A stretch of 64,000 bases of DNA from Gammaproteobacteria bacterium (GCA_009692265.1 SHZM01000005.1:12459-76458), one strand, 5' to 3'; shown: positions 2,615-54,580, numbered from the stretch's first letter. The notes: a model not told the origin generated them from the sequence alone. Made by a program: numbers and translations.

Positions 2615-2757
2615 TCCCGTGATAAGGCGCGATAAGGGCGTTGATCTGCGGCTATCAGTCGGCAGGTAGTCCCCACGGATGGCTGACACATTTATCACCA
2701 ACACACCAGCATGCCTTTTTCTGTCACTTCCCGACGACATTGCTCGTACGGAGCTCT

Positions 2758-4755
2758 TTAAGATCCGAGCATTCCTTTCAAGCTCGCGAGCGTTGCACGG
2801 CCTGAAGCGCGATCGGTCGTGGTATTGCTTGCGCCGTCCAGCACGAGGTCCTCGCGGGGCAGCTCTTCCAAAAACCGGCTAGGCTGGCAATCTTCAGTCT
2901 TGCCAAAGCGGCGACGCGTTCGCGCATAAGAAATCGTCAAACTTTGTTGCGCGCGGGTGATTCCCACATACGCCAGGCGGCGTTCTTCTTCGACGGTATC
3001 GGCGTCGATACTCGCGCGGTGGGGCAGGATGTTTTCTTCGAAGCCAACGAGATAGACATGCGGGAACTCAAGACCTTTCGCCGCGTGCAAGGTCATCAAG
3101 GCCAGGCAATCGCGATCGTCTTCCTCCTCCTTGCGATCCAGCATGTCGAACAAGGTCAGAGCGGCGATAACTCCGCTGAGATCACGCCCACCGTCCTGCG
3201 TCTCCAGCCGCGCAATCCAATCGATAAGATCGCCGACATTGGCCTTGCGTCGGGCCGCGTCTTCAGGTGCCTCGCTGGTTTCCTCCAACCAATCGTCGTA
3301 GCACAGATCGGCGACGACCTGGCGCGCGAGCGCTGCCGGCGAGCTCCCGTCGCTGGTAGGTTGCAAGCTGTGTATCCAATGGCCAAATTCCCGCGCCAGT
3401 TTCACCACCCGCGGTGTGGCGCGAGCGGCAAAGGCTTCGCTGTTCAAAGTGGCGCATAACGAGCGTTTGATGGATGCGGCGACTTGCACCAGCACTTCGA
3501 CGCTGGCGGAGCCGAGTCCACGCCGCGGACTGTTGATCACGCGTAACAACGCGTTGTCGTCATCAGGATTGGCAATCAATCTCAGGTAGCACAGAAGATC
3601 TTTAATTTCCGCCGCATCGAAAAATGAACGACTCCCTGATAGCAAATAGGGAATCGCGCGCTCCCGCAAGGCACCTTCGAACACCCGGGCTTGGTGGTTG
3701 CCGCGAAAGAGGATCGCGAAATCCTTGAACGCAGTGCCGTGCACAACCCGATGGTGGTTGATCATATTGACGATATTTTCCGCTTCCGCGAATTCGTCCG
3801 CAGCGCCGATCACCTTTATTCGTTCGCCGAAGCCGCGTTCGCTCCAGAGCTTTTTATCGAAGACATGCGGATTACTCGCGATCAGTTGGTTCGCCGCCTT
3901 GAGGATAATTCCCATTGAGCGGTAGTTCTGTTCGAGTTTGATGATTTTTAACGCTGGGAAGTCGCCGGTGAGCTTGGCTAGATTTTCCGGGCGCGCGCCG
4001 CGCCACGCGTAGATCGACTGATCATCATCGCCAACCGCGGTCAGGCGCCCGCGCGCTCCGACCAGCAGCTTGACGAGTTCATACTGTGCGAGGTTTGTAT
4101 CTTGGTACTCATCGACCAGCAAAAATCTGATTTTAGTCTGCCATGTCGCCAGTAAGTCCGGGTCCGCTTTGAATAGGCGCGCTGGCAGAAAAATCAAATC
4201 ATCGAAATCAACCGCGTTAAAGGCCAACAGCATCCGGGCATATTCCGGATAGCAGGCGAGCGCGGCGCGGGCGAGAGGGTCCCCGCCGTCCGCGCTGGCG
4301 GCTGACGGGTCGAGCAAGGCGCTTTTCCAGCTGGAGATCCGTTGCTGCAACGCGCCCAGATCAAAAGTATTTGAAGCTAGTTCGCGGCGGGCGACGTCCG
4401 CGAGCGCGGACTCGCTGTCACGCGAATCGAAAATGGTGAATCTCGGGCGTAGACCGCACCGTGCAAATTCCTCGCGCAGGATCCTCAGTCCCAAGGTGTG
4501 AAAGGTCGACACCCACGGGCGTAAGTTGCCGTCGCGCCTGAGGAGAGCCGAGACCCGCGATTGCATCTCCTTCGCGGCCTTATTCGTAAAAGTAATCGCG
4601 GCTATGGATTCCGGCGCGGCTTGCCGGCTGCTCACGAGGTGGGCGATTTTGTGCGCGATCACGCGCGTTTTGCCGCTCCCCGCGCCCGCGAGAACGAGCA
4701 ACGGACCTTCGGTGTAGCGCACGGCTTCGCGCTGCGGGGGATTTAGATCGCGCAC
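2758..4755 (-). CDS. rep: ATP-dependent DNA helicase Rep (UvrD/Rep SF1)
   Basis: LVLAGAGSGKTRVI, DEYQDTN, VGDDDQSIYAWRGA, LEQNYRS, MTLHAAKGLEF, EERRLAYVGITRA; 665 aa. Confidence 0.92.
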   Translation of the reverse strand: MRDLNPPQREAVRYTEGPLLVLAGAGSGKTRVIAHKIAHLVSSRQAAPESIAAITFTNKAAKEMQSRVSALLRRDGNLRPWVSTFHTLGLRILREEFARCGLRPRFTIFDSRDSESALADVARRELASNTFDLGALQQRISSWKSALLDPSAASADGGDPLARAALACYPEYARMLLAFNAVDFDDLIFLPARLFKADPDLLATWQTKIRFLLVDEYQDTNLAQYELVKLLVGARGRLTAVGDDDQSIYAWRGARPENLAKLTGDFPALKIIKLEQNYRSMGIILKAANQLIASNPHVFDKKLWSERGFGERIKVIGAADEFAEAENIVNMINHHRVVHGTAFKDFAILFRGNHQARVFEGALRERAIPYLLSGSRSFFDAAEIKDLLCYLRLIANPDDDNALLRVINSPRRGLGSASVEVLVQVAASIKRSLCATLNSEAFAARATPRVVKLAREFGHWIHSLQPTSDGSSPAALARQVVADLCYDDWLEETSEAPEDAARRKANVGDLIDWIARLETQDGGRDLSGVIAALTLFDMLDRKEEEDDRDCLALMTLHAAKGLEFPHVYLVGFEENILPHRASIDADTVEEERRLAYVGITRAQQSLTISYARTRRRFGKTEDCQPSRFLEELPREDLVLDGASNTTTDRASGRATLASLKGMLGS

Positions 4756-29684: not shown

Positions 29685-30374
29685 ATGACTCTCGATGCCA
29701 TAAGCACGACTGAATACCTGCAACAGCTACTCACGCAATGCCATCGGCGACGTTACGGACCAAAGGCGGCCATCATCCGCACCGGTGATCGCGCCGATGA
29801 ACTTTTCTACATTGTCTCCGGATCGGTATCTGTGTTGCTGGAGGACGACCAAGGCCATGAACTCGTGCTCGCGTATCTGAACGCGGGCGAATTCTTCGGC
29901 GAGATCGGATTGTTCGTCGAAGACGGTAACCGCTCGGCGCTGGTGCGCGCGCGCAACGAATGCGAAATAGCCCACATTGGCTACGCAAAACTTAAGACCT
30001 TAACGTCCTTGTATCCACGCTTAGTTACCTGTATGACCGCGCAATTAGCGCGCCGTCTACGCAACACCAATCGAAAACTTGGCGATTTAGCGTTCATGGA
30101 TGTCTATGGGCGTATCGCACGAACGTTACTAGACTTAAGCGAACAACCGGATTCGCTAACCCATCCCGACGGTATGCAAGTGCGGGTTACCCGACAGGAG
30201 CTTGCGCGACTTGTCGGCTGCTCGCGCGAAATGGTCGGCAAGGTTCTAAAAGAAATGGAAGAGCAGAAACAAATCAGGCTCAGCGGAAAAAACATTGTCC
30301 TCCTCGGAGTCCGAATTCGCGGAGCACGCCGCGGATCGGGTGATCAAGCGCTCCAGCGTCCCTGGATTACTTAG
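29685..30374 (+). CDS. crp: cAMP receptor protein (Crp/Vfr/Clp)
   Basis: GEFFGEIGLF, RSALVRA, THPDGMQVRVTRQELARLVGCSREMVG. Confidence 0.93.
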   Translation: MTLDAISTTEYLQQLLTQCHRRRYGPKAAIIRTGDRADELFYIVSGSVSVLLEDDQGHELVLAYLNAGEFFGEIGLFVEDGNRSALVRARNECEIAHIGYAKLKTLTSLYPRLVTCMTAQLARRLRNTNRKLGDLAFMDVYGRIARTLLDLSEQPDSLTHPDGMQVRVTRQELARLVGCSREMVGKVLKEMEEQKQIRLSGKNIVLLGVRIRGARRGSGDQALQRPWIT

Positions 30375-43837: not shown

Positions 43838-43983
43838 TTAAGGGCACCTCTAAAAATTGTCTTTTTGCTCGACTGCGGTGTTGCGACACTTCGTGCGATG
43901 CTTATTAACTTACGGTGTTAACTGCGCTTCTCGAAAGTACCGCGCCTAGCAAAAAAAATCCCAATTTTCAGAGGCACCCTTAA
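43838..43983. mobile_element. MITE-like element, type B, copy 1
   Basis: TTAAGGGCACCTCTAAAAATT ... AATTTTCAGAGGCACCCTTAA; similar to 46943-47092. Confidence 0.8.
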
Positions 43984-45164
43984 TGGGATTTTTTTAGCGC
44001 CTTCATCGCTCGGTCGAGGCCATCAATGGTTAGCGGGAACATGCGATCGGACACCAGCTGCTTAACCATGCCAATCGAGGGTATGTAACTCCAATAATCT
44101 TCCGGCTGCGGATTGAGCCATACAGCGTAGGGATACAGCGCAAGCATTCGCGCCATCCACGTCGCTCCGGATTCCTCGTTCCAATGCTCTATGCTGCCGC
44201 CAACGGCCATAATTTCATACGGGCTCATCGTCGCGTCACCGACGAACACGACTTTATGGTCCTTGCTGTATGTATTCATTAAACGCTGCGTCGGAAACCT
44301 CACGTTGTTGCGCATCTGGTTGTCGCGCCAGACCGTTTCATAGACAAAATTATGGAAATAGAAATGTTCCAGATGTTTGAATTCAGTCCGTGTCGCGGAG
44401 AACAGTTCTTCACACACCTTGACGTGGGGATCCATCGACCCGCCGACATCGAGGAACAGCAACACCTTGGTGGTATTTCGTCGCTCGGGAACGAGTTTGA
44501 TATCGAGTAGCCCGGCGCGGCGTGCGGTTGAACGAATCGTATCGTCGAGATCTAGTTCCTCTTCTGCGCCTTCGCGCGCGAACCGGCGCAACTTGCGCAG
44601 TGCTATTTTGATGTTACGAGTACCAAGCTCGACTTGATCGTCGAGATTTTGATATTCGCGTCGATCCCAAACCTTGACCGCGCGGCCTTGACGTCCGCCA
44701 GCTTGCCCGATTCTGACTCCTTCCGGGTTATAGCCGTTGGCACCGAAGGGCGAGGTGCCGCCAGTGCCTATCCACTTATTGCCACCGTGGTGTTCGCGCT
44801 TCTGTTCTTCCAGGCGCTGCTTCAAGGTCTCCATCAACTTGTCCCAGCCACCGAGGCTTTCGATCAGCTTCTTCTCTTCCTCGCTCAGATTAAGTTCTTG
44901 TTGCTTGCGTAACCAATCAAGCGGGATCTCGCCCAAAATCTCTTCAAAGATCGTTTGCTGACCACGGATGTAATCGCCGAAGACTTTATCGAAACGATCA
45001 AAGAAGCGCTCGTCCTTGACCAATGTGGCGCGCGCAAGAAAGTAAAAATCGTCAATGCTAAAGCCCGCGATGCCGGCTTCCAGCGCGCTCATCAACGTCA
45101 GATACTCGGTAATGGAGACCGGGACCTGTACCTTGCGCAGGCGATAGAAAAACTCAGTTAGCAC
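43980..45164 (-). CDS. VWA-domain (CoxE-like) partner of MoxR ATPase
   Basis: GTG 45164 (VLTEFFYRL..VPVSITEYL); GGNKWIGTGGTSPFG; MIDAS DVGGSM; FVGDATMSPYEI. Confidence 0.88.
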   Translation of the reverse strand: MLTEFFYRLRKVQVPVSITEYLTLMSALEAGIAGFSIDDFYFLARATLVKDERFFDRFDKVFGDYIRGQQTIFEEILGEIPLDWLRKQQELNLSEEEKKLIESLGGWDKLMETLKQRLEEQKREHHGGNKWIGTGGTSPFGANGYNPEGVRIGQAGGRQGRAVKVWDRREYQNLDDQVELGTRNIKIALRKLRRFAREGAEEELDLDDTIRSTARRAGLLDIKLVPERRNTTKVLLFLDVGGSMDPHVKVCEELFSATRTEFKHLEHFYFHNFVYETVWRDNQMRNNVRFPTQRLMNTYSKDHKVVFVGDATMSPYEIMAVGGSIEHWNEESGATWMARMLALYPYAVWLNPQPEDYWSYIPSIGMVKQLVSDRMFPLTIDGLDRAMKALKKSH

Positions 45165-46011
45165 CGCGTCCTCGCGACATGAACACCAGGCGCTCGAACA
45201 AGTGCATGTCCTGTTCGTTCTTGAGCAGCGCACCGTATAGTTTTGGGATTGCCTTGCGTGAATCTTTTTCGCGCAAAGCTTCAGGCGGAATATCTTCCGC
45301 GACCAAGAGCTTGATCCAGTCGAGTAGTTCCGAAGTCGACGGCTTTTTTTTGAGACCCGGTAATTCACGTAACTCGAAAAAGCACTGCATCGCTTCGGTT
45401 AATAACCGCTTTTTTATGTCGGGGTAGTGGACATGCACGATTTGGTTCATCGTTTCTTGATCCGGGAATCTGATGTAGTGGAAGAAGCAGCGTCTCAGAA
45501 ATGCGTCGGGCAACTCTTTCTCATTGTTGCTGGTAATAATGATGATCGGCCGGTGTACCGCTTTAATGGTTTCCTTGGTCTCGTAAACGTAGAACTCCAT
45601 GCGATCGAGTTCTTGTAATAAATCATTTGGGAACTCTATGTCGGCTTTGTCTATCTCATCGATCAAGAGTACTGGCTGTACCGGCGCTTCAAACGCCTCC
45701 CACAGCTTGCCTTTGAGGATGTAGTTACGGATATCGTGGACCCGGTTGTCGGCTAGCTGCGAATCACGCAGGCGCGCGACGGCGTCGTATTCGTAAAGCC
45801 CGCGCGCGGCCTTAGTAGTCGATTTGATATGCCATTGGATCAGTTCGCGATCAAGTGCACGGGCGATTTCCTCGGCGAGCATAGTTTTGCCGGTCCCGGG
45901 CTCGCCCTTGACCAGCAACGGGCGGGCGAGCGTAATCGCAGCATTCACGGCCATCATGAGATCGTCCGTGGCGACGTAAGTTTCGGTACCAGAGAAGCGA
46001 GCTATCGACAT
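45154..46011 (-). CDS. MoxR-family AAA+ ATPase
   Basis: GEPGTGKT, LLIDEIDKADIEFPNDLL, TSNNEKELPDAFLRRC. Confidence 0.93.
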   Translation of the reverse strand: MSIARFSGTETYVATDDLMMAVNAAITLARPLLVKGEPGTGKTMLAEEIARALDRELIQWHIKSTTKAARGLYEYDAVARLRDSQLADNRVHDIRNYILKGKLWEAFEAPVQPVLLIDEIDKADIEFPNDLLQELDRMEFYVYETKETIKAVHRPIIIITSNNEKELPDAFLRRCFFHYIRFPDQETMNQIVHVHYPDIKKRLLTEAMQCFFELRELPGLKKKPSTSELLDWIKLLVAEDIPPEALREKDSRKAIPKLYGALLKNEQDMHLFERLVFMSRGRGAN

Positions 46012-46145
46012 GAATAAGTTCCGATTAAGTTGAGTTACGGGCCGCATTGTAATGCAAGCTCGCGCCGATCAAAGCGCCGGCTGACAGCTTTGGCACGGTT
46101 ACCGAAATTTTTACCGGAACGAGGTCTACACGAGGAAATCTGGCT

Positions 46146-46946
46146 ATGACCACCAATTCGCAGCTAGTGATCGCAGTACTCGCGTCGGCGCTTAGCCAGT
46201 TGGCACAAGCCGATCGCGCCGTCGGGATCAAGGCATTCGAAAGCGCTGATTACGGCCAAGCCCTAACCGAATTGCGCCCCGTCGCGATCGCGGGTAATGC
46301 GGAAGCCCAATACACCCTGGGGGTCATGTACGCCCAAGGTTGGGGAGTACTGGCCGATCCTGAACAGGCCTTTGCCTGGTATCAGCGCGCCGCTGTTCAG
46401 GACTACGCCAAGGCAGAACATAATCTCGCAGTCATGATCGAAGGCGGTGAAGTCGCGACCCCCGATCCTGCCGCCGCCCGCCGCTGGTTCGAACGTGCGG
46501 CTAACCATGGCAGTGCCAAGGCCGCGCTTGAACTAGGGTTGCGTTGTTATCGTGGATTTGATGACAGCGGGCCGGACTACGCTCGCGCGCTGGGGTGGTG
46601 GGAGCGCGCATTCTCGGCCGGTGAACCCGATGCTGGGTATAACCTCGGAATTCTTCATCGCCGCGGCCTAGGGGTCGACAAGGACATCAATTCGGCCACG
46701 AGGTGGTGGGAGCGCGCGGCGCGAGCTGGATCTTTAGTGGCCCAAAACGCCTTGGGAGCAGCGTACCAATCCGCGGCAGGTGTGCCGCTCGAGCCGGTCA
46801 AAGCCTACGCGTGGTACCAAGTAGCTGCGCGTGGAGGCCTGCGGGTAGCGGCGCAAAATGCGACGCTTTTGGAAGCTCAACTAAGTCCCGAACAGCTCGC
46901 GCACGCGCGTGACCTTTCCACCGAATTGATGACTCAATCGCCTTAA
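46146..46946 (+). CDS. exported Sel1-like repeat protein
   Basis: Signal peptide and about 5 SLR repeats (AQYTLGVMYAQGWGV, etc.). Confidence 0.88.
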   Translation: MTTNSQLVIAVLASALSQLAQADRAVGIKAFESADYGQALTELRPVAIAGNAEAQYTLGVMYAQGWGVLADPEQAFAWYQRAAVQDYAKAEHNLAVMIEGGEVATPDPAAARRWFERAANHGSAKAALELGLRCYRGFDDSGPDYARALGWWERAFSAGEPDAGYNLGILHRRGLGVDKDINSATRWWERAARAGSLVAQNALGAAYQSAAGVPLEPVKAYAWYQVAARGGLRVAAQNATLLEAQLSPEQLAHARDLSTELMTQSP

Positions 46947-47092
46947 GGGCAACTCAAAAATTGTCTTTTTGCCCGATTGCGGCGCTGCGGCACTTCCTTC
47001 GATGCTCATTAACTTGCCGTGTTAACTGTGCTTTTCGGAAGTACCGCGCCTTGCACTCAAAAAAAAACCTAATTTTTTAGGGGTGCCCTTAA
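46943..47092. mobile_element. MITE-like element, type B, copy 2
   Basis: TTAAGGGCAACTCAAAAATT ... AATTTTTTAGGGGTGCCCTTAA. Confidence 0.8.
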
Positions 47093-47114
47093 CCGGAAAC
47101 GGCCGTTTCTCGGT

Positions 47115-49556
47115 TTAAAACTCGTCAGCGAGTTTGTCGGCGATTTCGTCGAGAAGCGTCAAGGTAGTATTGTCCGCGGCCTGTCGGGCCGCCGTGGCGC
47201 GCTGTCGAATGCGTGCCGTGTGTTCGAGCATGCGACTCATTAATCTTTGCGTTGCGCCGTTGAATTCTGCATTCGATCTTGTTCTTCAACCCATTCTTCA
47301 AGCTCTTTCTTAAGCAGCGAACTCAGTCCGCTTCCGGGCTGCTGCGCGCGTTGCAGCTGCTCCGCGTTTTCGCGCTGTCGCGATTCGGCGACTGAGGTCG
47401 CGGCTACCGCATCGACAAGTTTAGACGCGGCCGCCGAAGCGTGGGCCTCTAGCAGTTCAATCTCCGCGCGTAAGTTTTGTTCCGTCTGTTGGCTGGAAGA
47501 TTGACGCAAACGTGCGGCCGAAAGTTCTTGCTCTGCGACTACGCGGGCGGCTTCGGCGGCTTCCTTATCGCGCACCGCGTTAAGCATTTCGAGCCTGAGT
47601 CGCTCGGCATCCGCCGCAATGCGAGTTCGCTCCGCCGTCAGCTTCTGGGCCATTTCAAACGCTTGACGCGCTTGCGTGGCGCGATACTCCGCAATGATTG
47701 TCTGCGCTTCTTCAGCCGCCGCCGCCTTGGCTGCCTCGGCCGCTACTTGATCCTGGCGTGCCTGGGCGATTTCGGCTGCTGATTTGGCGAATTCAGCTTC
47801 AAAGCGTTGTCGCTCACGCGCCAATTCGCCCTTCAAAGTTTCGCGGAGTTGGGCTTCTTGCGCGGCGAGCTTGGTTGCTTGGGCAGCCTCGCGTGCGCGG
47901 GCTGTTTGCTCTAAGAGTTCAGCGGCGGCGAGCCGGTTGCGACTCATCGTGGATTCGAGTTCTATTTTTTACCAGGTGTCATTCAGAGACCGACGTTCCT
48001 GCTGGGTCGCCACTTGGAGCTGTTCGAGCTGTTGTGCCTGTTGTCGAAAAACCTCTTCAAGCCGAGCTTCTTTTTCCTGTAACGCGCGTTCGATTCGTTC
48101 CTGCGCGAGCTGGGCGCGAGCAGCGTGCTCTTTGCGTTGCCGCGCCGCTTCGGCCGATGCCGCGGCATGCTGCTGTTCGAGTAAGTTTTTTAAACGTCCC
48201 GCTTCTTCCAGCTTCGCACGAACCGCAGCCTCTTCTTGCTGGATGCGAGCTCGCTCATTTCCAACCTGCTGGGCGACATACTCCGCCGCTTCGCGTTTGG
48301 CCGCTTCTGCTTCCGCAACCAATTGCTGTGCATGCGCGATTTGAATGTGAGCCCGTTCAACTTCTGCGGCCAGCGACTGGGCATGGACTTCGGCATCAAC
48401 CATCGCTTCCCTACGCTGCGCGCTAGTGGCTTGGGCGGGGACTTCGGCCGGGGCAGGTGAAACAGCAGCTGTAGGCGCCGCTATCGGCGGAATTGGATGA
48501 GTGAGTAACTCATCGATCGCGCTGGTCGCAACAAAGCAGATGTCATAGCCTTCCTGGGTAAGGAGGAAGGCGGCTGCCGAGCTGCGCCCACCAGTATCGC
48601 AATACGCCACATAACTTATTTCGGGAGCCAGTTCTTTAAAGCGAGTTCGCAGGAAACTGAGTGGCAAATTAAAGCTTCGCGATAATCCGTTGGCCGCATG
48701 CTCTTCCGGGAAACGTACATCCAGCCAGCGCGCGCCGGCGTCTACCATTTCTCGCGCTTTAGCCAGACTGACGCTCCGTAGCAGTGGCTCCCTGATCAAT
48801 TCGATGAAATGCTCTTGCGTTAGCCGTCCCAGCACGCCGTCGGACAACATGCGCACCGTTGCATTTCGTTTTGTATTAGAGACGAGCGCTTCTTCGCCAA
48901 AGGTGTCGCCAGGCCCCAGTTCGGCGAGCTTGATTTGCTTGCCCGCACGCGTTGCGCGGCAAACTTCACACCTGCCGGTTTGCACGATGTAGTAATAATC
49001 ACCGACGTTGCCTTGTTGGATAACGACTTCGCCAGCGGTGACGTTGATAGCTTCCAAGGTATCGATCAACCGTTGGATATTCGCCGGTGGGATGCGCGCA
49101 AAGAGTTCGGATTGCAGCATGCTGGTGAGCCAGTCTAGCGCGCCAGTGGATTCAAACTCTTCGACTTCGATTGAAGACGGCTTTTCTTCTACCTCTTCGT
49201 TCGCAAGGCTTAGAAACTTATCGAGTAGGCGGCGATCGATCCGTAAAACCTGAGCGCTGCCAAGCGCCTTGGCCGACATTTGGCGCGGCTGGAGTTGCGC
49301 TAATGGCTGAAACGACGCAGCGTCTCCACCCACCATCCTTTTTATGAGTTGGTCGCCGGACCACATCTCAAGTTCGCCAGACAGCAGATAATGCGAATAA
49401 TTATCTCGATCGCCCTGCCGGAAGATGTGGTCCTTCTTTGTTAAAACTTAGAATTTCGGCCGTCGCCAACAGTTGTTCCTGTTGTTTCGGCTGCAAATTA
49501 TTGATGGGCACCAACAGGCCCAGACGTTCATGGAAAGTATTTTGTTCCGAAGGCAT
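47115..49556 (-). pseudogene. tandem cNMP-binding/rhodanese/coiled-coil protein, short paralog (about 810 codons, three lesions)
   Basis: Start MPSEQNTFHERLGLLVPINNL; frameshift near 49440; GDTFGEEALVSNTKRNATV; WLDVRFPEEH; YCDTGGRSS; in-frame TAA at 47969; frameshift near 47240; tail RIRQRATAAR...LLDEIADKL* matches the paralog's C-terminus. Confidence 0.85.
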
Positions 49557-49587
49557 AACACGTCCGTGACTTGCTTTATGCGTTGCC

Positions 49588-49794
49588 TCAAGCGTCTAAG
49601 TCGGGAATGAGGGCGCTTTTGAGTTTGGCAATTTGATCCTTGAGCTGCAGCTTGCGCTTTTTTAAACGCTTAATCAGTAATTCATCGACGCGTGGTGATT
49701 CGGTTAAACGAGCCACAATTTCGTCCAGGTCGCGATGTTCGACTTGGAGTTCGAACAGACGGCGTTCAACTGATTTACGATCTGTGTTCGACAA
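49588..49794 (-). CDS. DUF465/YdcH family small coiled-coil protein
   Basis: RLFELQVEHRDLD...IKRLKKRKLQLKDQI...IPDLDA; TTG start after GGAG. Confidence 0.88.
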   Translation of the reverse strand: MSNTDRKSVERRLFELQVEHRDLDEIVARLTESPRVDELLIKRLKKRKLQLKDQIAKLKSALIPDLDA

Positions 49795-50234
49795 GCCGAA
49801 CTCCAAGCTGCAAGCGTACCGTTTCATGCAAAATTCTACAGCTAATCGAATAAAAAAACGGAACTTTTTGTCGGTCCATCGACGAGGATGCAGGGCCGCC
49901 AGCGCTATGGCGTGGCGCCGGTAGGTGTAACCCTATGGTAGGCCGATGACGAGTCAACGTTCCCTCCGCCCTGCCGATTCCGGGACCGTTCACAATACGG
50001 GTTTGCCGGGAGCGGTCGCTACACCCAATAGAGCGCCGCCAGCGGTGTTACTGGAGCCGGTCGTGAGCGTATACTCGGCACAAATATACGAAGATAAATG
50101 CCCACATCACGAGATCTCGACACCGCGGCGGCGGCACTGGTGAGAGATTTGTCGGGGATGGCCGCGCTCGGGATAATGGCCGAGCGCCCGATTGGTGGAT
50201 CTCGTGTGGGTCGCTGCGTTGGTGAACCGAAATG

Positions 50235-50250
50235 CGTGATCGCTATCACA
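50235..50250. promoter_or_regulatory. candidate CRP/Vfr binding site
   Basis: CGTGA-TCGCTA-TCACA (consensus TGTGA-N6-TCACA); extended -10-like TGCTTTAAT at 50288-50296. Confidence 0.55.
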
Positions 50251-50359
50251 AAGGCCTACCTACTCTCCTGCAGCAGCCGCCACGGGTTGCTTTAATTCGA
50301 ACTGACGACAACCAACTAGCTCATTTGCAACCGAGTCAAAGCTTGCGTTTTCTCCAATT

Positions 50360-53300
50360 ATGACAGCGTCGCAGGCGATCGAAGAAAAATTCTCATCCGT
50401 TCTACGGATGCTTGTACCCATCAATGGGTTGTCGGTGCCACGGCGTCAACAGCTCTTCGCGCAGGCCGAAGTGCTCGGGATTCGACGCGGCAGCTATGTG
50501 TTTCATGAAGGCGACAAGGACAGCTACGCTTTCTTTCTGCTTGAGGGCAGCTTGGAATTGTTTGCAGGACAGCAGCTCGTGAAGCGCATAGCCGGAGGCA
50601 GTGTAGATGCGATTCATCCGCTCGCGCAGTTGCAACCGCGTCAGCTGTCGGCACGCGCATTGAGCGAGGCGCACGTCTTGCGGGTGAGCCGAGATTTACT
50701 CGATAAGCTCCTGGCGCTCGACGGAACTGGTGATTCCAATTACCTCAAGATTGACGAAACCGACCCCGACGAGGAAAGCGATTGGATGACTCGGATGCTT
50801 CAGTCCGAACTATTCAGCCGTGTGCCAGCCGCGAACATTCAACGGATATTCGTAAGCCTCGAATCCGTTGAGTACAAAGCCAGCGACGTCGTAGTGCGGC
50901 AAGGGGGCCCAGGGGATTTCTACTACGTGATTCAAACAGGTCGCTGCCAAGTCAGCCGTCAGATCCCCAACGGCAAAGTGCCCATCAAACTTGCTGAATT
51001 GGGACCTGGTGACACTTTCGGCGAAGAAGCCCTCGTGGCGGAAGCGACTCGCAATGCGACCGTGACCATGCTCACCGGCGGGACCCTGATGCGCCTGACG
51101 AAGGAGGACTTCGTCGAGTTAATCAAGAAACCTCTATTGAACGAAATTAGCCACCGTGAAGCGCAGCACCTTGTCGCTAATCAAGGTGCAGTGTGGCTCG
51201 ACGTCAGATTTCCGGAAGAACACCGCGCGGGGAGTATCGAAGCGAGCCTGAATCTTCCCCTCAATACCTTACGGATGCACGCCGAACGACTCGATCGCGA
51301 TAAAATGTACATCGTCTGCTGCGACACCGGATCTCGCAGCTCAGTAGGCGCTTTCCTACTTTCGGAACGTGGTTTCGATGTCTTCTATCTAAGCGGCGGC
51401 ATGGTACGGCACGGCTTACTGACGCCCGCGCTTGACGAGATAAACGATAGTTTTCCCGCAAAACCGCGACCACCCGTGCGGCAAGGCTCGACCGGCGTGA
51501 GTGTGACGCCAGTGAGCGCCGTGGTCCCTTCGTCGCAGAAGTCTGAAGCAGAGCGCCAGCACGCCGGCGTTTTGCACGCAATCAATAACGACGTACTTGA
51601 CGCCGACTTGCGCGCGCAAGCTCTTAAGACCGAACTTGCCAAAGCTAATATCCAGCTTAACGAAGCACGCAACCTTAAAGAACAAGCCGAACAAGCTCGC
51701 CTTGAAACCGAGCGGGTCGCAGCGCTCCGCCTCGAAGCTGAACGCACTCGCTTAGCCCAAGATGCCGAGCATGCCCGCCAAGCAGTTGAAGAGGCGCGGC
51801 GACTGAAAGTGCAGCTGGAGCAGGCTAGACAGGAAGCGCAACAGCTCGCGACTCGAGCGCGTGATAAGGAATCCGAAGATCTGCTTGCAGCCAATCGTCA
51901 GCTCCAGGAAGCACACCGCGTAAAGTTGGAAGTTGAAGCCGCGCGCGCGCAAATGGAGAGTGAATTACGCGAGCGACTTGCCAGTGAGCAAGCCAAACTT
52001 GCGGCTGAGACGGAAGCGGAGAGACGCAAACTGGAAGCCGAAGCTGCGCGTCTACGCGCCGAGCTCGAAGCCGAGCATCGCACGGCTAGAATGCTCGCCG
52101 CGCAGGCACGTGAACAAGAGTCCGCCAGTGCCGAAACGGTGAATGCTCAACTTGAAGAAGTTCGTCGGCTAAAAGCCGACGCCGAAACTGCACGAGCGGA
52201 CCTGGAACGCGCCGCCGCGGCGAGACTTGAGGAAGAGAAATCGAGGATCGCGGAAGACGCCGAACGTGCCCGTAGCGCGCTGGAGGAAGCGCAGCGCATT
52301 AAGGGCGAGCTGGAAAATTCACAGGCCGGTCTCACGCGAGAAGTTGAAACTCGTCTAGAGGCGAAGCAGCGTGAACTTCAGGCTGAAGCGGAACGTACAA
52401 GGCTGGCTTTAGAAGAGGCTCAACGTCTTAAGGAAGACGCCGAAGCGGTGCGCGCCAACCTAGCACGCGAAGCTGAAGCACGCCTGCGTGAGCAGCAGGG
52501 GAAGCTCGAAGCCGAGGCGGCGCAAGCCCGTCTAGCCTGGGAAGAAGCACAACGTCTGAAAGCGCAAGTCGAATTGGACAAGCAGCGTGCCGAGGAGGAC
52601 GCGGCGCGCCAACGCGCCGAAGCCCTCGCCGAGCTGCAGGAAGCGAATTTTCGTTTGGAAGCGGCGCAACGCGCTCGAGCCGAAGCCGAAGACGCGCGAA
52701 TGCTTCTCGAAAAACAAGCGGCTCTGCGAATTATCGAAGAACAGGCGTGCTTAGCTGACGAGGCAGCCAAGACGCAACGCATGTGGGAAGACGCGCAACG
52801 TTTTAAAGAGCAAATCGAAACCGAGAAACGCCAAGCTGACGAGGAGGCGGCCCTCCGGCACCGTGACGAAGAAGCCCGAATCCAGACGATGCGCGCAGAG
52901 GCCGAGCGACGGCTCCGCGAAGAAGAACGCAAGCTCGAGGAAAGCTACGCTTGGCAGGCCGAAGAACTCGCACGCTTGCAGCGTATGAAAGAAGAAACCG
53001 AGCAACAACTGGTGCTCGAACGGGCGCGGCTAAAATCAGATTCCGAAGAAGCGCGGTCACGCCTAGCGGAAGCCAAGCGAATCCAGGTTGAGGTGGAGGA
53101 AGCGCGAGTCGCGAGCGCGGAAGAGGCGCAAACCCGCGAGCTACGACAGCTTGAATTGGAACGCCGACTACGCGATGAAATTCAAGCCAAGGTGGACGGT
53201 GAACGCCGTAAGCTTGAGGCAGAATTTGCGCGTAATGCAGAAGAACTCGAGCGCGCGCAGCAAGAAAGGGCTGCGGCGGAAGCAGCCCGCAACGCGGCGG

Positions 53301-53911
53301 CAGAAGAAGCTGAAAGGATTATTCAAGAATTCAAGCAGTCTCATCAGGATCAGCGCGTTCGCGAAGAGGAGAAGCTGCGGATCGAACGTGAGCGCTTAGA
53401 GCGCGAATCCGCGCAATTGCGTGCCGCGCTACAGGAGGCACAGCAGGCGCAAGAACACGCGGCGCTTATTCAGCAGCGCTTAGAAAGCCAATTACAGGAA
53501 CTTGCCACCTCGCGTGCGGCGGATCGCACCCTGCATAGCGAACGCGAATCCCAACTTACGGCTGATGTTGCCGCGATAGAAGCGGAAGTTGGTGCCGCGC
53601 GTGCTAATGCGGCGGAGGAGGAGGCCGCCCATCGACGGGTGCTCGTTGCGGCGAGCATCAATGAAGCGAGTCTTGAACAGCATCGTCAGGAAGAGGGAGC
53701 AATCCGCAGTCGCTTCGAACAAGAAATTACGTCGTGGTTGAGCGAGCAGGACGAAATCAAAAACAGTCAATTGTCACGCCAAGTATTCGCCAATCAGCGC
53801 GCGCATCTTGATCGAATAAAACAGCGTGCCCAAGCTGCGCGAACCTCAGCCAAGGCCCACGACCAGGCACTGATCGAAGATCTCGCGGCTCACTTGAAGC
53901 GCCCGGACTAG
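50360..53911 (+). CDS. tandem cNMP-binding + rhodanese + long repetitive coiled-coil protein (1183 aa)
   Basis: Degenerate cNMP domain 1; cNMP domain 2 with GDTFGEEAL..RNATV; rhodanese WLDVRFPEEH...CDTGSRS; about 770 aa of E/A/R/Q/L-rich helix. Confidence 0.9.
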   Translation: MTASQAIEEKFSSVLRMLVPINGLSVPRRQQLFAQAEVLGIRRGSYVFHEGDKDSYAFFLLEGSLELFAGQQLVKRIAGGSVDAIHPLAQLQPRQLSARALSEAHVLRVSRDLLDKLLALDGTGDSNYLKIDETDPDEESDWMTRMLQSELFSRVPAANIQRIFVSLESVEYKASDVVVRQGGPGDFYYVIQTGRCQVSRQIPNGKVPIKLAELGPGDTFGEEALVAEATRNATVTMLTGGTLMRLTKEDFVELIKKPLLNEISHREAQHLVANQGAVWLDVRFPEEHRAGSIEASLNLPLNTLRMHAERLDRDKMYIVCCDTGSRSSVGAFLLSERGFDVFYLSGGMVRHGLLTPALDEINDSFPAKPRPPVRQGSTGVSVTPVSAVVPSSQKSEAERQHAGVLHAINNDVLDADLRAQALKTELAKANIQLNEARNLKEQAEQARLETERVAALRLEAERTRLAQDAEHARQAVEEARRLKVQLEQARQEAQQLATRARDKESEDLLAANRQLQEAHRVKLEVEAARAQMESELRERLASEQAKLAAETEAERRKLEAEAARLRAELEAEHRTARMLAAQAREQESASAETVNAQLEEVRRLKADAETARADLERAAAARLEEEKSRIAEDAERARSALEEAQRIKGELENSQAGLTREVETRLEAKQRELQAEAERTRLALEEAQRLKEDAEAVRANLAREAEARLREQQGKLEAEAAQARLAWEEAQRLKAQVELDKQRAEEDAARQRAEALAELQEANFRLEAAQRARAEAEDARMLLEKQAALRIIEEQACLADEAAKTQRMWEDAQRFKEQIETEKRQADEEAALRHRDEEARIQTMRAEAERRLREEERKLEESYAWQAEELARLQRMKEETEQQLVLERARLKSDSEEARSRLAEAKRIQVEVEEARVASAEEAQTRELRQLELERRLRDEIQAKVDGERRKLEAEFARNAEELERAQQERAAAEAARNAAAEEAERIIQEFKQSHQDQRVREEEKLRIERERLERESAQLRAALQEAQQAQEHAALIQQRLESQLQELATSRAADRTLHSERESQLTADVAAIEAEVGAARANAAEEEAAHRRVLVAASINEASLEQHRQEEGAIRSRFEQEITSWLSEQDEIKNSQLSRQVFANQRAHLDRIKQRAQAARTSAKAHDQALIEDLAAHLKRPD

Positions 53912-53912
53912 A

Positions 53913-53937
53913 TCAAGAGTCCTCGGAGGACTCTTGA
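53913..53937. terminator. hairpin right after the stop, between convergent genes
   Basis: TCAAGAGTCCT-CGG-AGGACTCTTGA. Confidence 0.6.
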
Positions 53938-53988
53938 ATTAAGAAGAATTCACTCCGCCAAGCTTAAGCCCAAGCATAATCTAGTCGT

Positions 53989-54330
53989 TCACGATGGCCG
54001 CGAGCCGCCGGCGATATCGATGTATAACGGGCCGTTCGGCATTTCCAGCTCGATCCACGTAAAGAACTGACCACGGAGTGCGACCATCCCACGTCGACGG
54101 TCGGCACCGTCGGTGCTGAATTCAAATTCATAGCGACGCTCAAAAGTTAGGCCATTCGCGCGCACTAAGCGGATTCCGCGTAAAGCTACTGAATCGTCAA
54201 GTCGTTGAAGCTTGAGATCACTGCAGACCTCACGACTCACCGCGAGCACTCGTTCTCGCCCAACCACACTCCAACTCCATGCACCTAACGCAAGGCCGAG
54301 CGCGGCCAGCATGAGGAGCGCCTGCCCCAT
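53989..54330 (-). CDS. DUF3301-like protein
   Basis: N-terminal TM; RE..C....LQRLDDSVAL; YEFEFSTDG..RRRG. Confidence 0.8.
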   Translation of the reverse strand: MGQALLMLAALGLALGAWSWSVVGRERVLAVSREVCSDLKLQRLDDSVALRGIRLVRANGLTFERRYEFEFSTDGADRRRGMVALRGQFFTWIELEMPNGPLYIDIAGGSRPS

Positions 54331-54388
54331 CTAGCTGCCTACTCTCAAATAAGCTGGGTTGTAAAAAAATCCTTTCAAGATCCAACAC

Positions 54389-54580
54389 TCAATCGTCACC
54401 GCGTGCAGCTGAGAACAGCGCGAGTTGGCCATCAATTACCTGGAACGCAATTTCGATCGGCTGGCAACACACTTCACAATCCTCGATATAGCGCTGTTCC
54501 GGCGCTGAGAGATCGAGCACGCTTGAGATCGCCTCGCCGCAATATGGACAGGAATAGTAATGTTCTTCGGCAAACGACAA
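54389..54580 (-). CDS. CPXCG-motif cysteine-rich protein
   Basis: CPYCGE...YIEDCEVCCQPI. Confidence 0.85.
   Translation of the reverse strand: MSFAEEHYYSCPYCGEAISSVLDLSAPEQRYIEDCEVCCQPIEIAFQVIDGQLALFSAARGDD

Follow-up and report, generated by a model that had tools for sequence, protein, structure and literature searches.

A cyclic nucleotide-binding and rhodanese head on a long repeat-built helical tail: an uncharacterised gammaproteobacterial family linked to DUF465, with a decaying paralog

Introduction

What might a bacterium do with a protein that carries two cyclic nucleotide-binding (CNB) domains and a rhodanese in front of a helical tail of several hundred residues? This question is raised by a locus at positions 47115-53911 of a 64,000-nucleotide stretch of DNA from a Gammaproteobacteria bacterium (GCA_009692265.1, SHZM01000005.1:12459-76458; hereafter the window), which belongs to a 3.4-Mb draft genome of 118 contigs and in which a long gene and a shorter paralog lie on either side of a small DUF465 gene. 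To our knowledge, very few bacterial effectors of cyclic AMP (cAMP) or cyclic GMP (cGMP) are understood beyond the transcription factors of the CRP family. The family to which these genes belong couples a sensor resembling the regulatory subunit of protein kinase A (PKA-R) to a sulfur-transfer fold and to a rod with an inferred length of the order of 100 nm; hundreds of uncultured Gammaproteobacteria carry members of this family, which is linked to DUF465.

An original prediction, made from the window alone, had read the locus as two head-to-head paralogs of one layout flanking the DUF465 gene and had suggested a cyclic-nucleotide-controlled scaffold or filament, possibly a heteropolymer of long and short subunits, with an architecture that no characterised protein was known to share. 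The excerpts returned by our literature search likewise contain no paper describing this architecture or a function of DUF465. Within those excerpts, a 2007 survey of CNB domains lists a 'Rhodanese homology domain' among their bacterial partners (PMC2246266), and a review of 2024 places CbpA beside Vfr as a second effector of cAMP in Pseudomonas aeruginosa (PMC11139211). Here we describe the long gene as an intact member of an uncharacterised family that is widespread in uncultured freshwater Gammaproteobacteria and that, judging from a conserved upstream site, apparently belongs to the CRP regulon, and the short paralog as a sister gene of old origin, now in decay in this genome.

The long gene encodes an intact protein with a PKA-R/PKG-type head

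The long gene (50360-53911, + strand) encodes 1183 amino acids in one uninterrupted open reading frame (ORF), is recognised by Pfam and has orthologs of 1275-1372 amino acids in relatives. From the N terminus, its product is composed of a degenerate CNB domain (CNB-A), a second CNB domain (CNB-B), a rhodanese domain, a linker, a helical repeat tail of ~760 residues and a C-terminal module. Pfam identifies two stretches of the cyclic nucleoside monophosphate (cNMP)-binding family (E = 3.8e-30, 104.2 bits in total relative to a cut-off of 27.5) followed by Rhodanese PF00581 (E = 1.5e-11, 45.1 bits relative to a cut-off of 22.2), the domain order originally proposed; the last 830 residues have no Pfam match, and NCBIfam holds no family model for the protein. 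No membrane segment is apparent in the long protein, the best 19-residue segment of which has a hydropathy of 0.99.

We evaluated the conservation of individual positions in 23 full-length sequences (alignment A1) and in 65 head sequences. CNB-A (50480-50716, + strand; PF00027, 42.7 bits) carries LAQLQPRQ in place of the phosphate-binding cassette; at the cassette position it has HPLAQLQPRQLSA, which is shorter, lacks the Gly-Glu and so does not qualify as a cassette, and P93 and R94 of its QPR motif are invariant in the 65 heads. As read from its sequence, CNB-A is degenerate as a nucleotide site, yet constrained. CNB-B (50867-51130, + strand; PF00027, 72.2 bits) has an intact cassette, FGEEAL...RNATV, which follows the F-G-E-x-A-L ... 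R-x-A-T pattern and aligns to the cassette of cGMP-dependent protein kinase (PKG) I; F220, G221, E222, E223 and L225 are invariant and R231, N232 and A233 at least 90% conserved across the heads. The rhodanese domain (51155-51406, + strand) contains the CX4R loop C321-D-T-G-S-R326, in which C321, D322, G324 and R326 are invariant in the full-length set and at least 90% conserved in the heads. With a domain score over the cut-off and a Cys heading a six-residue loop, it has the sequence features of a catalytic-type rhodanese, and the GlpE and PspE models match it weakly, below their cut-offs (GlpE 29.7 relative to 102 bits). Thus, the three motifs singled out at the outset (LAQLQPRQ, FGEEAL...RNATV and CDTGSRS) are all present, with key residues invariant or at least 90% conserved. 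The two linkers proposed alongside them are also present, one acidic (residues 124-136) and one moderately Pro-rich (residues 350-420; 51407-51619, + strand), the latter being of low complexity, with 7 Pro in 71 residues, and varying in length and sequence in the full-length alignment.

An AlphaFold2 model of residues 1-365, built from the 65-sequence alignment, had a mean predicted local distance difference test score (pLDDT) of 89.7 and a predicted template modelling score (pTM) of 0.61, at which the packing of the domains is uncertain. The acidic linker is disordered in this model, and residues 359-365 of the second linker have a pLDDT below 50. The best solved matches of the head in Foldseek were PKA regulatory subunits and the tandem CNBs of PKG (E ~1e-19 to 1e-20, template modelling score (TM) ~0.3), in agreement with a sequence search of the PDB, in which PKA-R/PKG tandem CNBs were the top head matches (E down to 6.7e-25). 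By sequence and modelled fold, then, the head is a tandem CNB of PKA-R/PKG type with one domain degenerate and the other intact, the arrangement first put forward for it.

The tail is a repeat-built helix that ends in a conserved module

We next turn to the C-terminal two-thirds of the protein. The tail consists of tandem 43-residue repeats (51620-53521, + strand), as indicated by self-comparison, a repeat hidden Markov model (HMM), a seam of 12 positions per 43 residues and a helix in the AlphaFold2 model. Ala accounts for 21% of residues 421-1183, Glu for 19%, Arg for 14%, Leu for 10.5% and Gln for 9%, and the 763 residues include just 6 Gly and a single Pro. Self-comparison recovered repeat lags of 43, 82-86, 165-169, 208 and 251, with a best comparison-window score of 97 relative to a maximum of 60 across 30 shuffles, and the repeat HMM found 19 segments, with clean copies beginning at residues 434, 477, 599, 642, 685 and 728. 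Large hydrophobics and Ala occupy ~12 core positions per 43 residues, and periodicity power over residues 599-813 was 1.30 at 43/12 = 3.58 compared to 0.19 at 3.5. The tail thus has a regular seam, yet it is not a heptad coiled coil. Of the long coiled coil that had been proposed here, the helical and repeat-built character stands; heptad (3.5) periodicity is lacking, so the coiled coil itself becomes a conjecture, and the tail may be a weakly supercoiled, non-heptad one. Length differences between orthologs map to the repeat array in the full-length alignment. If it formed one continuous helix, the tail would span ~110 nm (763 residues at ~0.15 nm).

The C-terminal module (residues 785-1183; 52712-53908, + strand) was delimited by long/short alignment, AlphaFold2 helices and a profile search. 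These ~400 residues are common to long- and short-type proteins (alignment A3) and contain the blocks ERRKLEAEFARxAEELE, AAEAARxAAAEEAxRII, W..EQ and RIKxRA...HD..L.DEIA. An AlphaFold2 model of the module (pLDDT 79.7, pTM 0.25) has helices at residues 786-1054, 1062-1135 and 1137-1180, the last ~120 residues (1062-1183) forming the two further helices that had been described as a shared 'cap'. A related end does exist in both copies; in the short copy, it lies in another frame (47285-47118). A profile of the module matched only 264 clusters (E ≤ 0.001) among 1.84 billion representatives, and among the 150 matches listed, the best module stretch mostly reaches or nears the protein C terminus. 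Ten module matches of atypical length were scanned, seven of which contain a CNB and/or rhodanese domain and three of which have no Pfam match. A search of the ESM Atlas with residues 830-1183 gave a best score of 0.84, below a meaningful level, and generic hypothetical or coiled-coil clusters.

A conserved CRP-type site precedes the long gene

The 532-bp intergenic region between the DUF465 gene and the long gene contains CGTGATCGCTATCACA at 50235-50250, a CRP/Vfr-type palindrome of the form CGTGA-N6-TCACA with one mismatch to TGTGA-N6-TCACA. Only two sites with at most one mismatch occur in the window, this being one of them. A site of the same stringency lies at -124 to -164 from the long-gene start in 10 of 12 relatives, a count taken among kin that overstates their independence. 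In the intergenic alignment, AATGCGTGA-N6-TCACAAA forms an island of conservation within which the N6 spacer varies. Another conserved element, TTGCTTTAAT, follows 36 nucleotides (nt) after the island in 10 of the 13 aligned sequences (window included), and it contains TGcTTTAAT (50288-50296, + strand), a putative extended -10 element. With the palindrome centred at 50242.5 and the -10 hexamer at 50291-50296, the centre would fall at -60.5 or -61.5 for a presumed start at 50303 or 50304. Class I CRP-dependent promoters have their site centred near -61.5, -71.5, -82.5 or -92.5. We infer that cAMP-CRP would activate the long gene from a class-I-type position at this predicted promoter.

The window also encodes a CRP/Vfr ortholog of 229 amino acids (29685-30374, + strand; NF008732, 301 bits relative to a cut-off of 266), whose best solved relative is P. 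aeruginosa Vfr (E = 1e-75) and whose recognition helix is near-identical to that of Vfr, making it the likely reader of the palindrome at 50235-50250. Scans for sigma-70 promoters and terminators returned sites no more numerous than in shuffles, and a promoter-like match at 50149-50177 was dropped, not being conserved in the intergenic alignment. Rfam gave no match at E ≤ 1 over 46900-54400, and no CRP-type site was found upstream of a head-only paralog of 346 amino acids encoded elsewhere in the genome. Three relatives (L020, L021 and L022) have a second CRP-like site, TGTGAC-N5-T[TA]ACA with one mismatch. It lies at -230 to -247, ~100 nt further upstream than the main site, has no counterpart in the window and might serve the divergent DUF465 promoter.

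The short copy is an old paralog and now a pseudogene

The short copy (47115-49556, - strand) is a true paralog, with the same head by Pfam and a related C-terminal end, and it diverges from the long gene as described in the original prediction; it is not, however, one open gene but three frames joined, interrupted by two frameshifts and an in-frame TAA, all of which that prediction had passed over. It opens with 41 codons at 49556-49434 in one frame, and its body follows at 49447-47972 in another, placing the first frameshift near 49434-49447. The TAA stands at 47969-47971; 47968-47246 is then open and ends in TAA TGA at 47240-47245, close to the second frameshift (near 47240-47250), and the conserved C-terminal end is read in the third frame (47285-47118), whose stop is at 47115, the position at which the locus had been taken to begin. 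Aligned to the intact ortholog of relative G002, the short copy breaks first after ...AEILSFN and before KKDHIF, and opposite the TAA the ortholog has a Gln. Intact short-type orthologs of 762-824 amino acids are found in six relatives.

We checked these lesions over 47000-50400 in Logan contigs, rather than raw reads, from four public freshwater-metagenome runs. Run X1 may be the source sample, X2 is another sample of the same study and X3 comes from a second study; runs X4 to X6 cover small shares of the stretch only and are left out of all claims. A 4020-base contig of X2 spans 47000-49799 gap-free with one substitution (48455 A>G), and all three lesions are therefore present in it. Pieces of X3 at 47193-47592 and 47651-47985 have no differences and thus contain the 3' frameshift and the TAA, the 5' frameshift lying outside the coverage of X3. 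The substitution at 48455, inside the pseudogene, is common to the X2 and X3 contigs and was not seen in X1. We also weighed recoding of the TAA and discarded it: more of the window's long ORFs end in TAA than in any other stop (18 of 34 with 250 codons or more), and the ortholog encodes Gln here. Because the lesions recur in other contigs, the long and flanking genes are open and TAA is an ordinary stop, the short copy is almost certainly a pseudogene in this population, and any function in this genome must rest on the long protein alone.

The age of the pair can be read from a FastTree phylogeny of 65 heads, comprising 63 retained at no more than 75% identity from 104 high-scoring segment pairs, the window's own head and the genome's head-only paralog as root. 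DUF465-linked short-type heads form one clade of 17 leaves with a support of 0.94 (0.99 with L058); long-type heads group weakly (0.47). Since the short-type heads form a supported clade, the tree indicates that the long/short pair is an old duplication that has been repeatedly lost, not a recent copy.

DUF465 accompanies the tailed genes

The DUF465 gene (49588-49827, - strand) encodes 79 amino acids (PF04325, E = 3.6e-14, 52.9 bits relative to a cut-off of 25). It is a real gene located between the two copies, as had been claimed; rather than being simply flanked, it lies 31 nt upstream of the short pseudogene, co-directional with it, and is divergent from the long gene. Among the 31 related genomes that we searched (G000, the genome of the window, included), 13 had a long-tailed match and were compared as loci. 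DUF465 adjoins a tailed head gene in all 13 and faces a long-type gene in 12, the remaining locus (G028) having a different layout with two tandem copies on a short contig. Gene order around it is kept, running VWA, AAA, Sel1 ... DUF3301, DUF520, (HAD), PreP, and the position between DUF465 and Sel1 holds an intact short-type gene in six loci and lacks the short-type gene in six others.

A wider set of 76 loci included 49 main genes with the C-terminal module, 46 of which had at least 900 nt upstream. In 34 of these 46 loci, a DUF465 gene occurs no more than 900 nt upstream (27 divergent, 7 co-directional), and L075 has one more that overlaps the frame; 28 loci contain a second, divergent head gene, and in 27 of these DUF465 is located between the two head genes. 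The 13-locus and 46-locus counts share some genomes and are thus not independent. Overall, synteny of the pair with DUF465 extends to many relatives, as the original prediction would have it (DUF465 in 13 of 13 loci, the full pair in 27 of 46), and DUF465 would be the likeliest partner of the C-terminal module. A second DUF465 gene lies at 2692-2832 (+ strand) of contig C14, away from any head paralog found.

The head is shared by proteins with different C-terminal ends

A protein search scored 8000 candidates of near length, 189 of which matched at E ≤ 1e-3. All 120 matches listed carry PF00027 and PF00581, and among them the family names are generic only ('CRP-like cAMP-binding protein', 'cyclic nucleotide-binding domain-containing protein'). 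A search of species-representative genomes with the alignment A1 profile gave 599 pattern matches, 484 of which encode relatives. We kept 76 loci, nearly all from metagenome-assembled genomes (MAGs) of uncultured Gammaproteobacteria, a few of them labelled Thiohalobacter, Thiogranum, Ectothiorhodospiraceae or Chromatiales.

For its 3.4 Mb, the genome of the window is itself rich in cNMP signalling, with 24 matches to CNB domains and 11 to class III cyclase domains over cut-off, and it encodes three further head paralogs, one head-only and two short-tailed. The head-only protein (L003; contig C19, 1474-2514, + strand) is a tail-less CNB-CNB-rhodanese of 346 amino acids, a form that is strongly conserved (74-88% identity among the top 120 matches, which bear MAG names only); a 298-amino-acid ORF directly downstream of it looks by eye like a shikimate dehydrogenase. 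Both remaining paralogs, on contigs C88 and C22, have the loop Cys of the rhodanese and have lost the loop Arg. In the C88 paralog (L004; ORF 610-2277, - strand), which has this same Cys-without-Arg loop, the match crosses an in-frame TAA in the first cNMP domain and is open for 555 amino acids after it; L004 may be a second decaying paralog.

A sister clade of 13 loci (head-tree support 0.98) has the same head on ORFs of 1456-1773 amino acids. An FGE-sulfatase domain ends all four of the cousins scanned (L090, L094, L101 and L105; E = 1e-51 to 1e-57), and none of the 13 loci has a DUF465 neighbour. The profile search also recovered P0341 (1737 amino acids), which combines the same head and an FGE end with a PP2C phosphatase domain after the head. 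Since the same head occurs on module-, FGE- and PP2C-bearing proteins, it behaves, on domain annotation, as a movable sensor module fronting different C-terminal ends.

Neighbouring genes and a dispersed repeat were also observed. The block at 43980-46946 contains a VWA (CoxE-like) gene, an AAA ATPase gene and a gene for a Sel1-repeat protein. The AAA protein has 82-95% identity across the 13 relatives' loci, and the VWA and AAA ORFs as listed overlap by ~215 nt, so that the VWA start is probably further downstream. An intergenic repeat of ~91 nt occurs 11 times across the genome (82-100% identity): one copy lies shortly beyond the 3' end of the pseudogene (46985-47075), another shortly beyond the VWA gene (43882-43967), and nine are on other contigs. 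Extra contigs stack on 47000-47058 (summed depth 45.8 relative to 11.7), and the repeat folded alone is mildly stable (z = -2.3).

Discussion

How might these elements work together? We propose that the product of the long gene is a soluble receptor for cyclic nucleotides in the cytoplasm, mounted on a long rod, and that it serves as a cNMP-gated tether or scaffold within the cAMP regulon. This reading, taken whole, we regard as evenly poised between right and wrong. We are considerably more confident in its descriptive part, while the gated-tether mechanism is tentative and stands somewhat below an even chance. Under this mechanism, cAMP-CRP would switch on the long gene, and the long protein would bind cAMP or cGMP at CNB-B, the predicted site. 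By analogy with PKA-R, binding could then shift the helix that connects CNB-B directly to the rhodanese, changing how accessible Cys321 or a partner is. The repeat rod, of the order of 100 nm, would keep the head at a set distance from the target of the C-terminal docking module, which probably works with DUF465. A bolder version, which we think quite unlikely, would make the family a 'molecular ruler' class of effector: a cAMP-CRP-induced protein of at least 100 nm whose evolvable 43-residue repeats set the distance from head to docking module, whose PKA-R-like head links the binding of cAMP or cGMP to a rhodanese Cys active in redox or persulfide chemistry and whose docking module is bound by DUF465, resulting in a cyclic-nucleotide-gated cytoskeletal or polar tether and in a first function for DUF465.

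Several observations weigh against our proposal. The Asn after the cassette Arg in R-N-A-T of CNB-B fits neither of what we take to be the PKA and PKG patterns, so either cAMP or cGMP may be the ligand, and the pTM of the head model leaves the arrangement of its domains in doubt. Upstream of the gene, matches to TGTGA-N6-TCACA with at most two mismatches are at chance in the window (18 found, 18.3 expected), the sites of the other two of the 12 relatives (L031 and L032) are located elsewhere, at -232 and -278, and the relatives in which the site recurs are kin. Searched with this query, 4 of 12 genomes of the same genus (G004, G007, G008 and G012; 74-97% complete) yielded no long gene, and 11 to 12 of the 46 loci have no DUF465 gene in the 900 nt upstream. 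Finally, the tail has no heptad signal (power 0.0 at period 3.5 across its whole length), and 18% of its residues are large hydrophobics and 41% charged; a single stable helix or another helical form thus remains a candidate.

A model in which the two paralogs assemble together into a heteropolymer, as a filament or polar scaffold gated by cAMP, would explain why the head and the ~400-residue C-terminal module are common to both proteins, and it draws on the divergent pair with DUF465 between recurring in 27 of 46 loci and on a short-type clade whose support points to a pair that is old and retained. The short gene here, however, carries three disabling lesions, two frameshifts and a nonsense codon, seen in several samples, so a heteropolymer cannot operate in this genome; the short copy is also absent from 6 of the 13 relatives' loci and from 18 of the 46 wider loci. 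We therefore abandon this part of the original prediction for the present genome and consider it highly improbable as a general account. A separate alternative is that the lesions are sequencing or assembly artefacts and the pair is intact in the living cell; both frameshifts do lie in short A/T runs, an A-run follows the TAA and the genome is a draft of 118 contigs. Yet a separate contig from another sample spans 47000-49799 gap-free with its one substitution, pieces from a second study match exactly at the 3' frameshift and at the TAA, and no break interrupts the 3.5-kb long gene or any flanking gene scanned, which makes artefacts scarcely credible.

Two further alternatives concern the long protein itself. 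It could be chiefly an enzyme, a cNMP-regulated sulfurtransferase or persulfide carrier whose tail serves oligomerisation or positioning. The CX4R loop residues C321, D322, G324 and R326 are conserved in long, short, head-only and FGE-ended forms, the GlpE and PspE models match weakly, if below cut-offs, and the head alone exists as the strongly conserved 346-amino-acid protein; some members come from MAGs labelled Thiohalobacter, Thiogranum or Ectothiorhodospiraceae, which are sulfur oxidisers. We nevertheless think this account unlikely: no sulfur-metabolism neighbours were seen among the flanking genes scanned, the paralogs on C88 and C22 keep the loop Cys and lose the Arg, and the 400-residue C-terminal module and its DUF465 linkage are left unexplained. 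Alternatively, the tail could be a single stable alpha-helix of ER/K type, or another non-coiled-coil helix, and the protein a monomeric spacer. The charge-rich, hydrophobic-poor composition and the zero power at period 3.5 noted above suit this view, as does the AlphaFold2 monomer model, which gives one long helix. However, 12 Ala/Leu positions per 43 residues are kept between repeats, a seam for which a single helix has no need, and opposite-charge i, i+4 pairs number 111 in 763 residues, which is modest for an ER/K helix. A monomeric single-helix spacer accordingly seems to us rather doubtful, a little more so than the enzyme.

Taken together, the long protein would be a non-transcriptional cNMP receptor; the family itself is real, widespread and conserved, and its proposed function is read from sequence. 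The pseudogene narrows the hypothesis, in that the long protein must be able to act without its paralog. If the receptor-on-a-rod proposal is true, it would add a new class of cyclic-nucleotide output, namely spatial or structural organisation, or sulfur and redox chemistry, give DUF465 a first functional context and provide a natural helical spacer of variable length.

Comparison with known systems sharpens this picture. The two tandem CNBs joined by helices liken the head to PKA-R and PKG, its best matches in sequence and fold, whereas the long protein has no kinase or inhibitor sequence, its site A is degenerate and a rhodanese follows, and the TM of ~0.3 reflects either a different relative placement of the head domains or model uncertainty. 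With GlpE, PspE and the rhodaneses of CoA-disulfide/persulfide reductases, the protein shares the fold with a Cys starting a six-residue loop; GlpE and PspE are single-domain rhodaneses, while here the domain is fused behind CNBs and scores far below the equivalog cut-offs. Crescentin, FilP/Scy, the Ccrp proteins and TolA domain II resemble the tail in their long Ala- and charge-rich, repeat-built helical segments and in the absence of enzymatic domains from these; the Pfam and Atlas searches gave no sequence relation, and the long protein differs in its 43/12 period and its N-terminal sensor head. The FGE-ended cousins share the CNB-CNB-rhodanese head and a long stretch after it with at most weak coiled-coil-type Pfam matches, but replace the C-terminal module with an FGE-sulfatase end and have no DUF465 neighbour in any of their 13 loci.

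A further likeness is to CbpA (PA4704), which Endoh and Engel reportedly described in 2009 as a non-DNA-binding cAMP receptor with a degenerate N-terminal and an intact C-terminal CAP domain. Its gene is said to depend on Vfr through a Vfr site, and its polar localisation to be cAMP-dependent. The long gene has the same degenerate-plus-intact order of CAP/CNB domains and, upstream, a conserved and predicted CRP/Vfr-type site, a likeness drawn from reported features of CbpA. CbpA is reported to consist of two CAP domains only; to such a head the long protein adds a rhodanese, a 760-residue tail and a C-terminal module.

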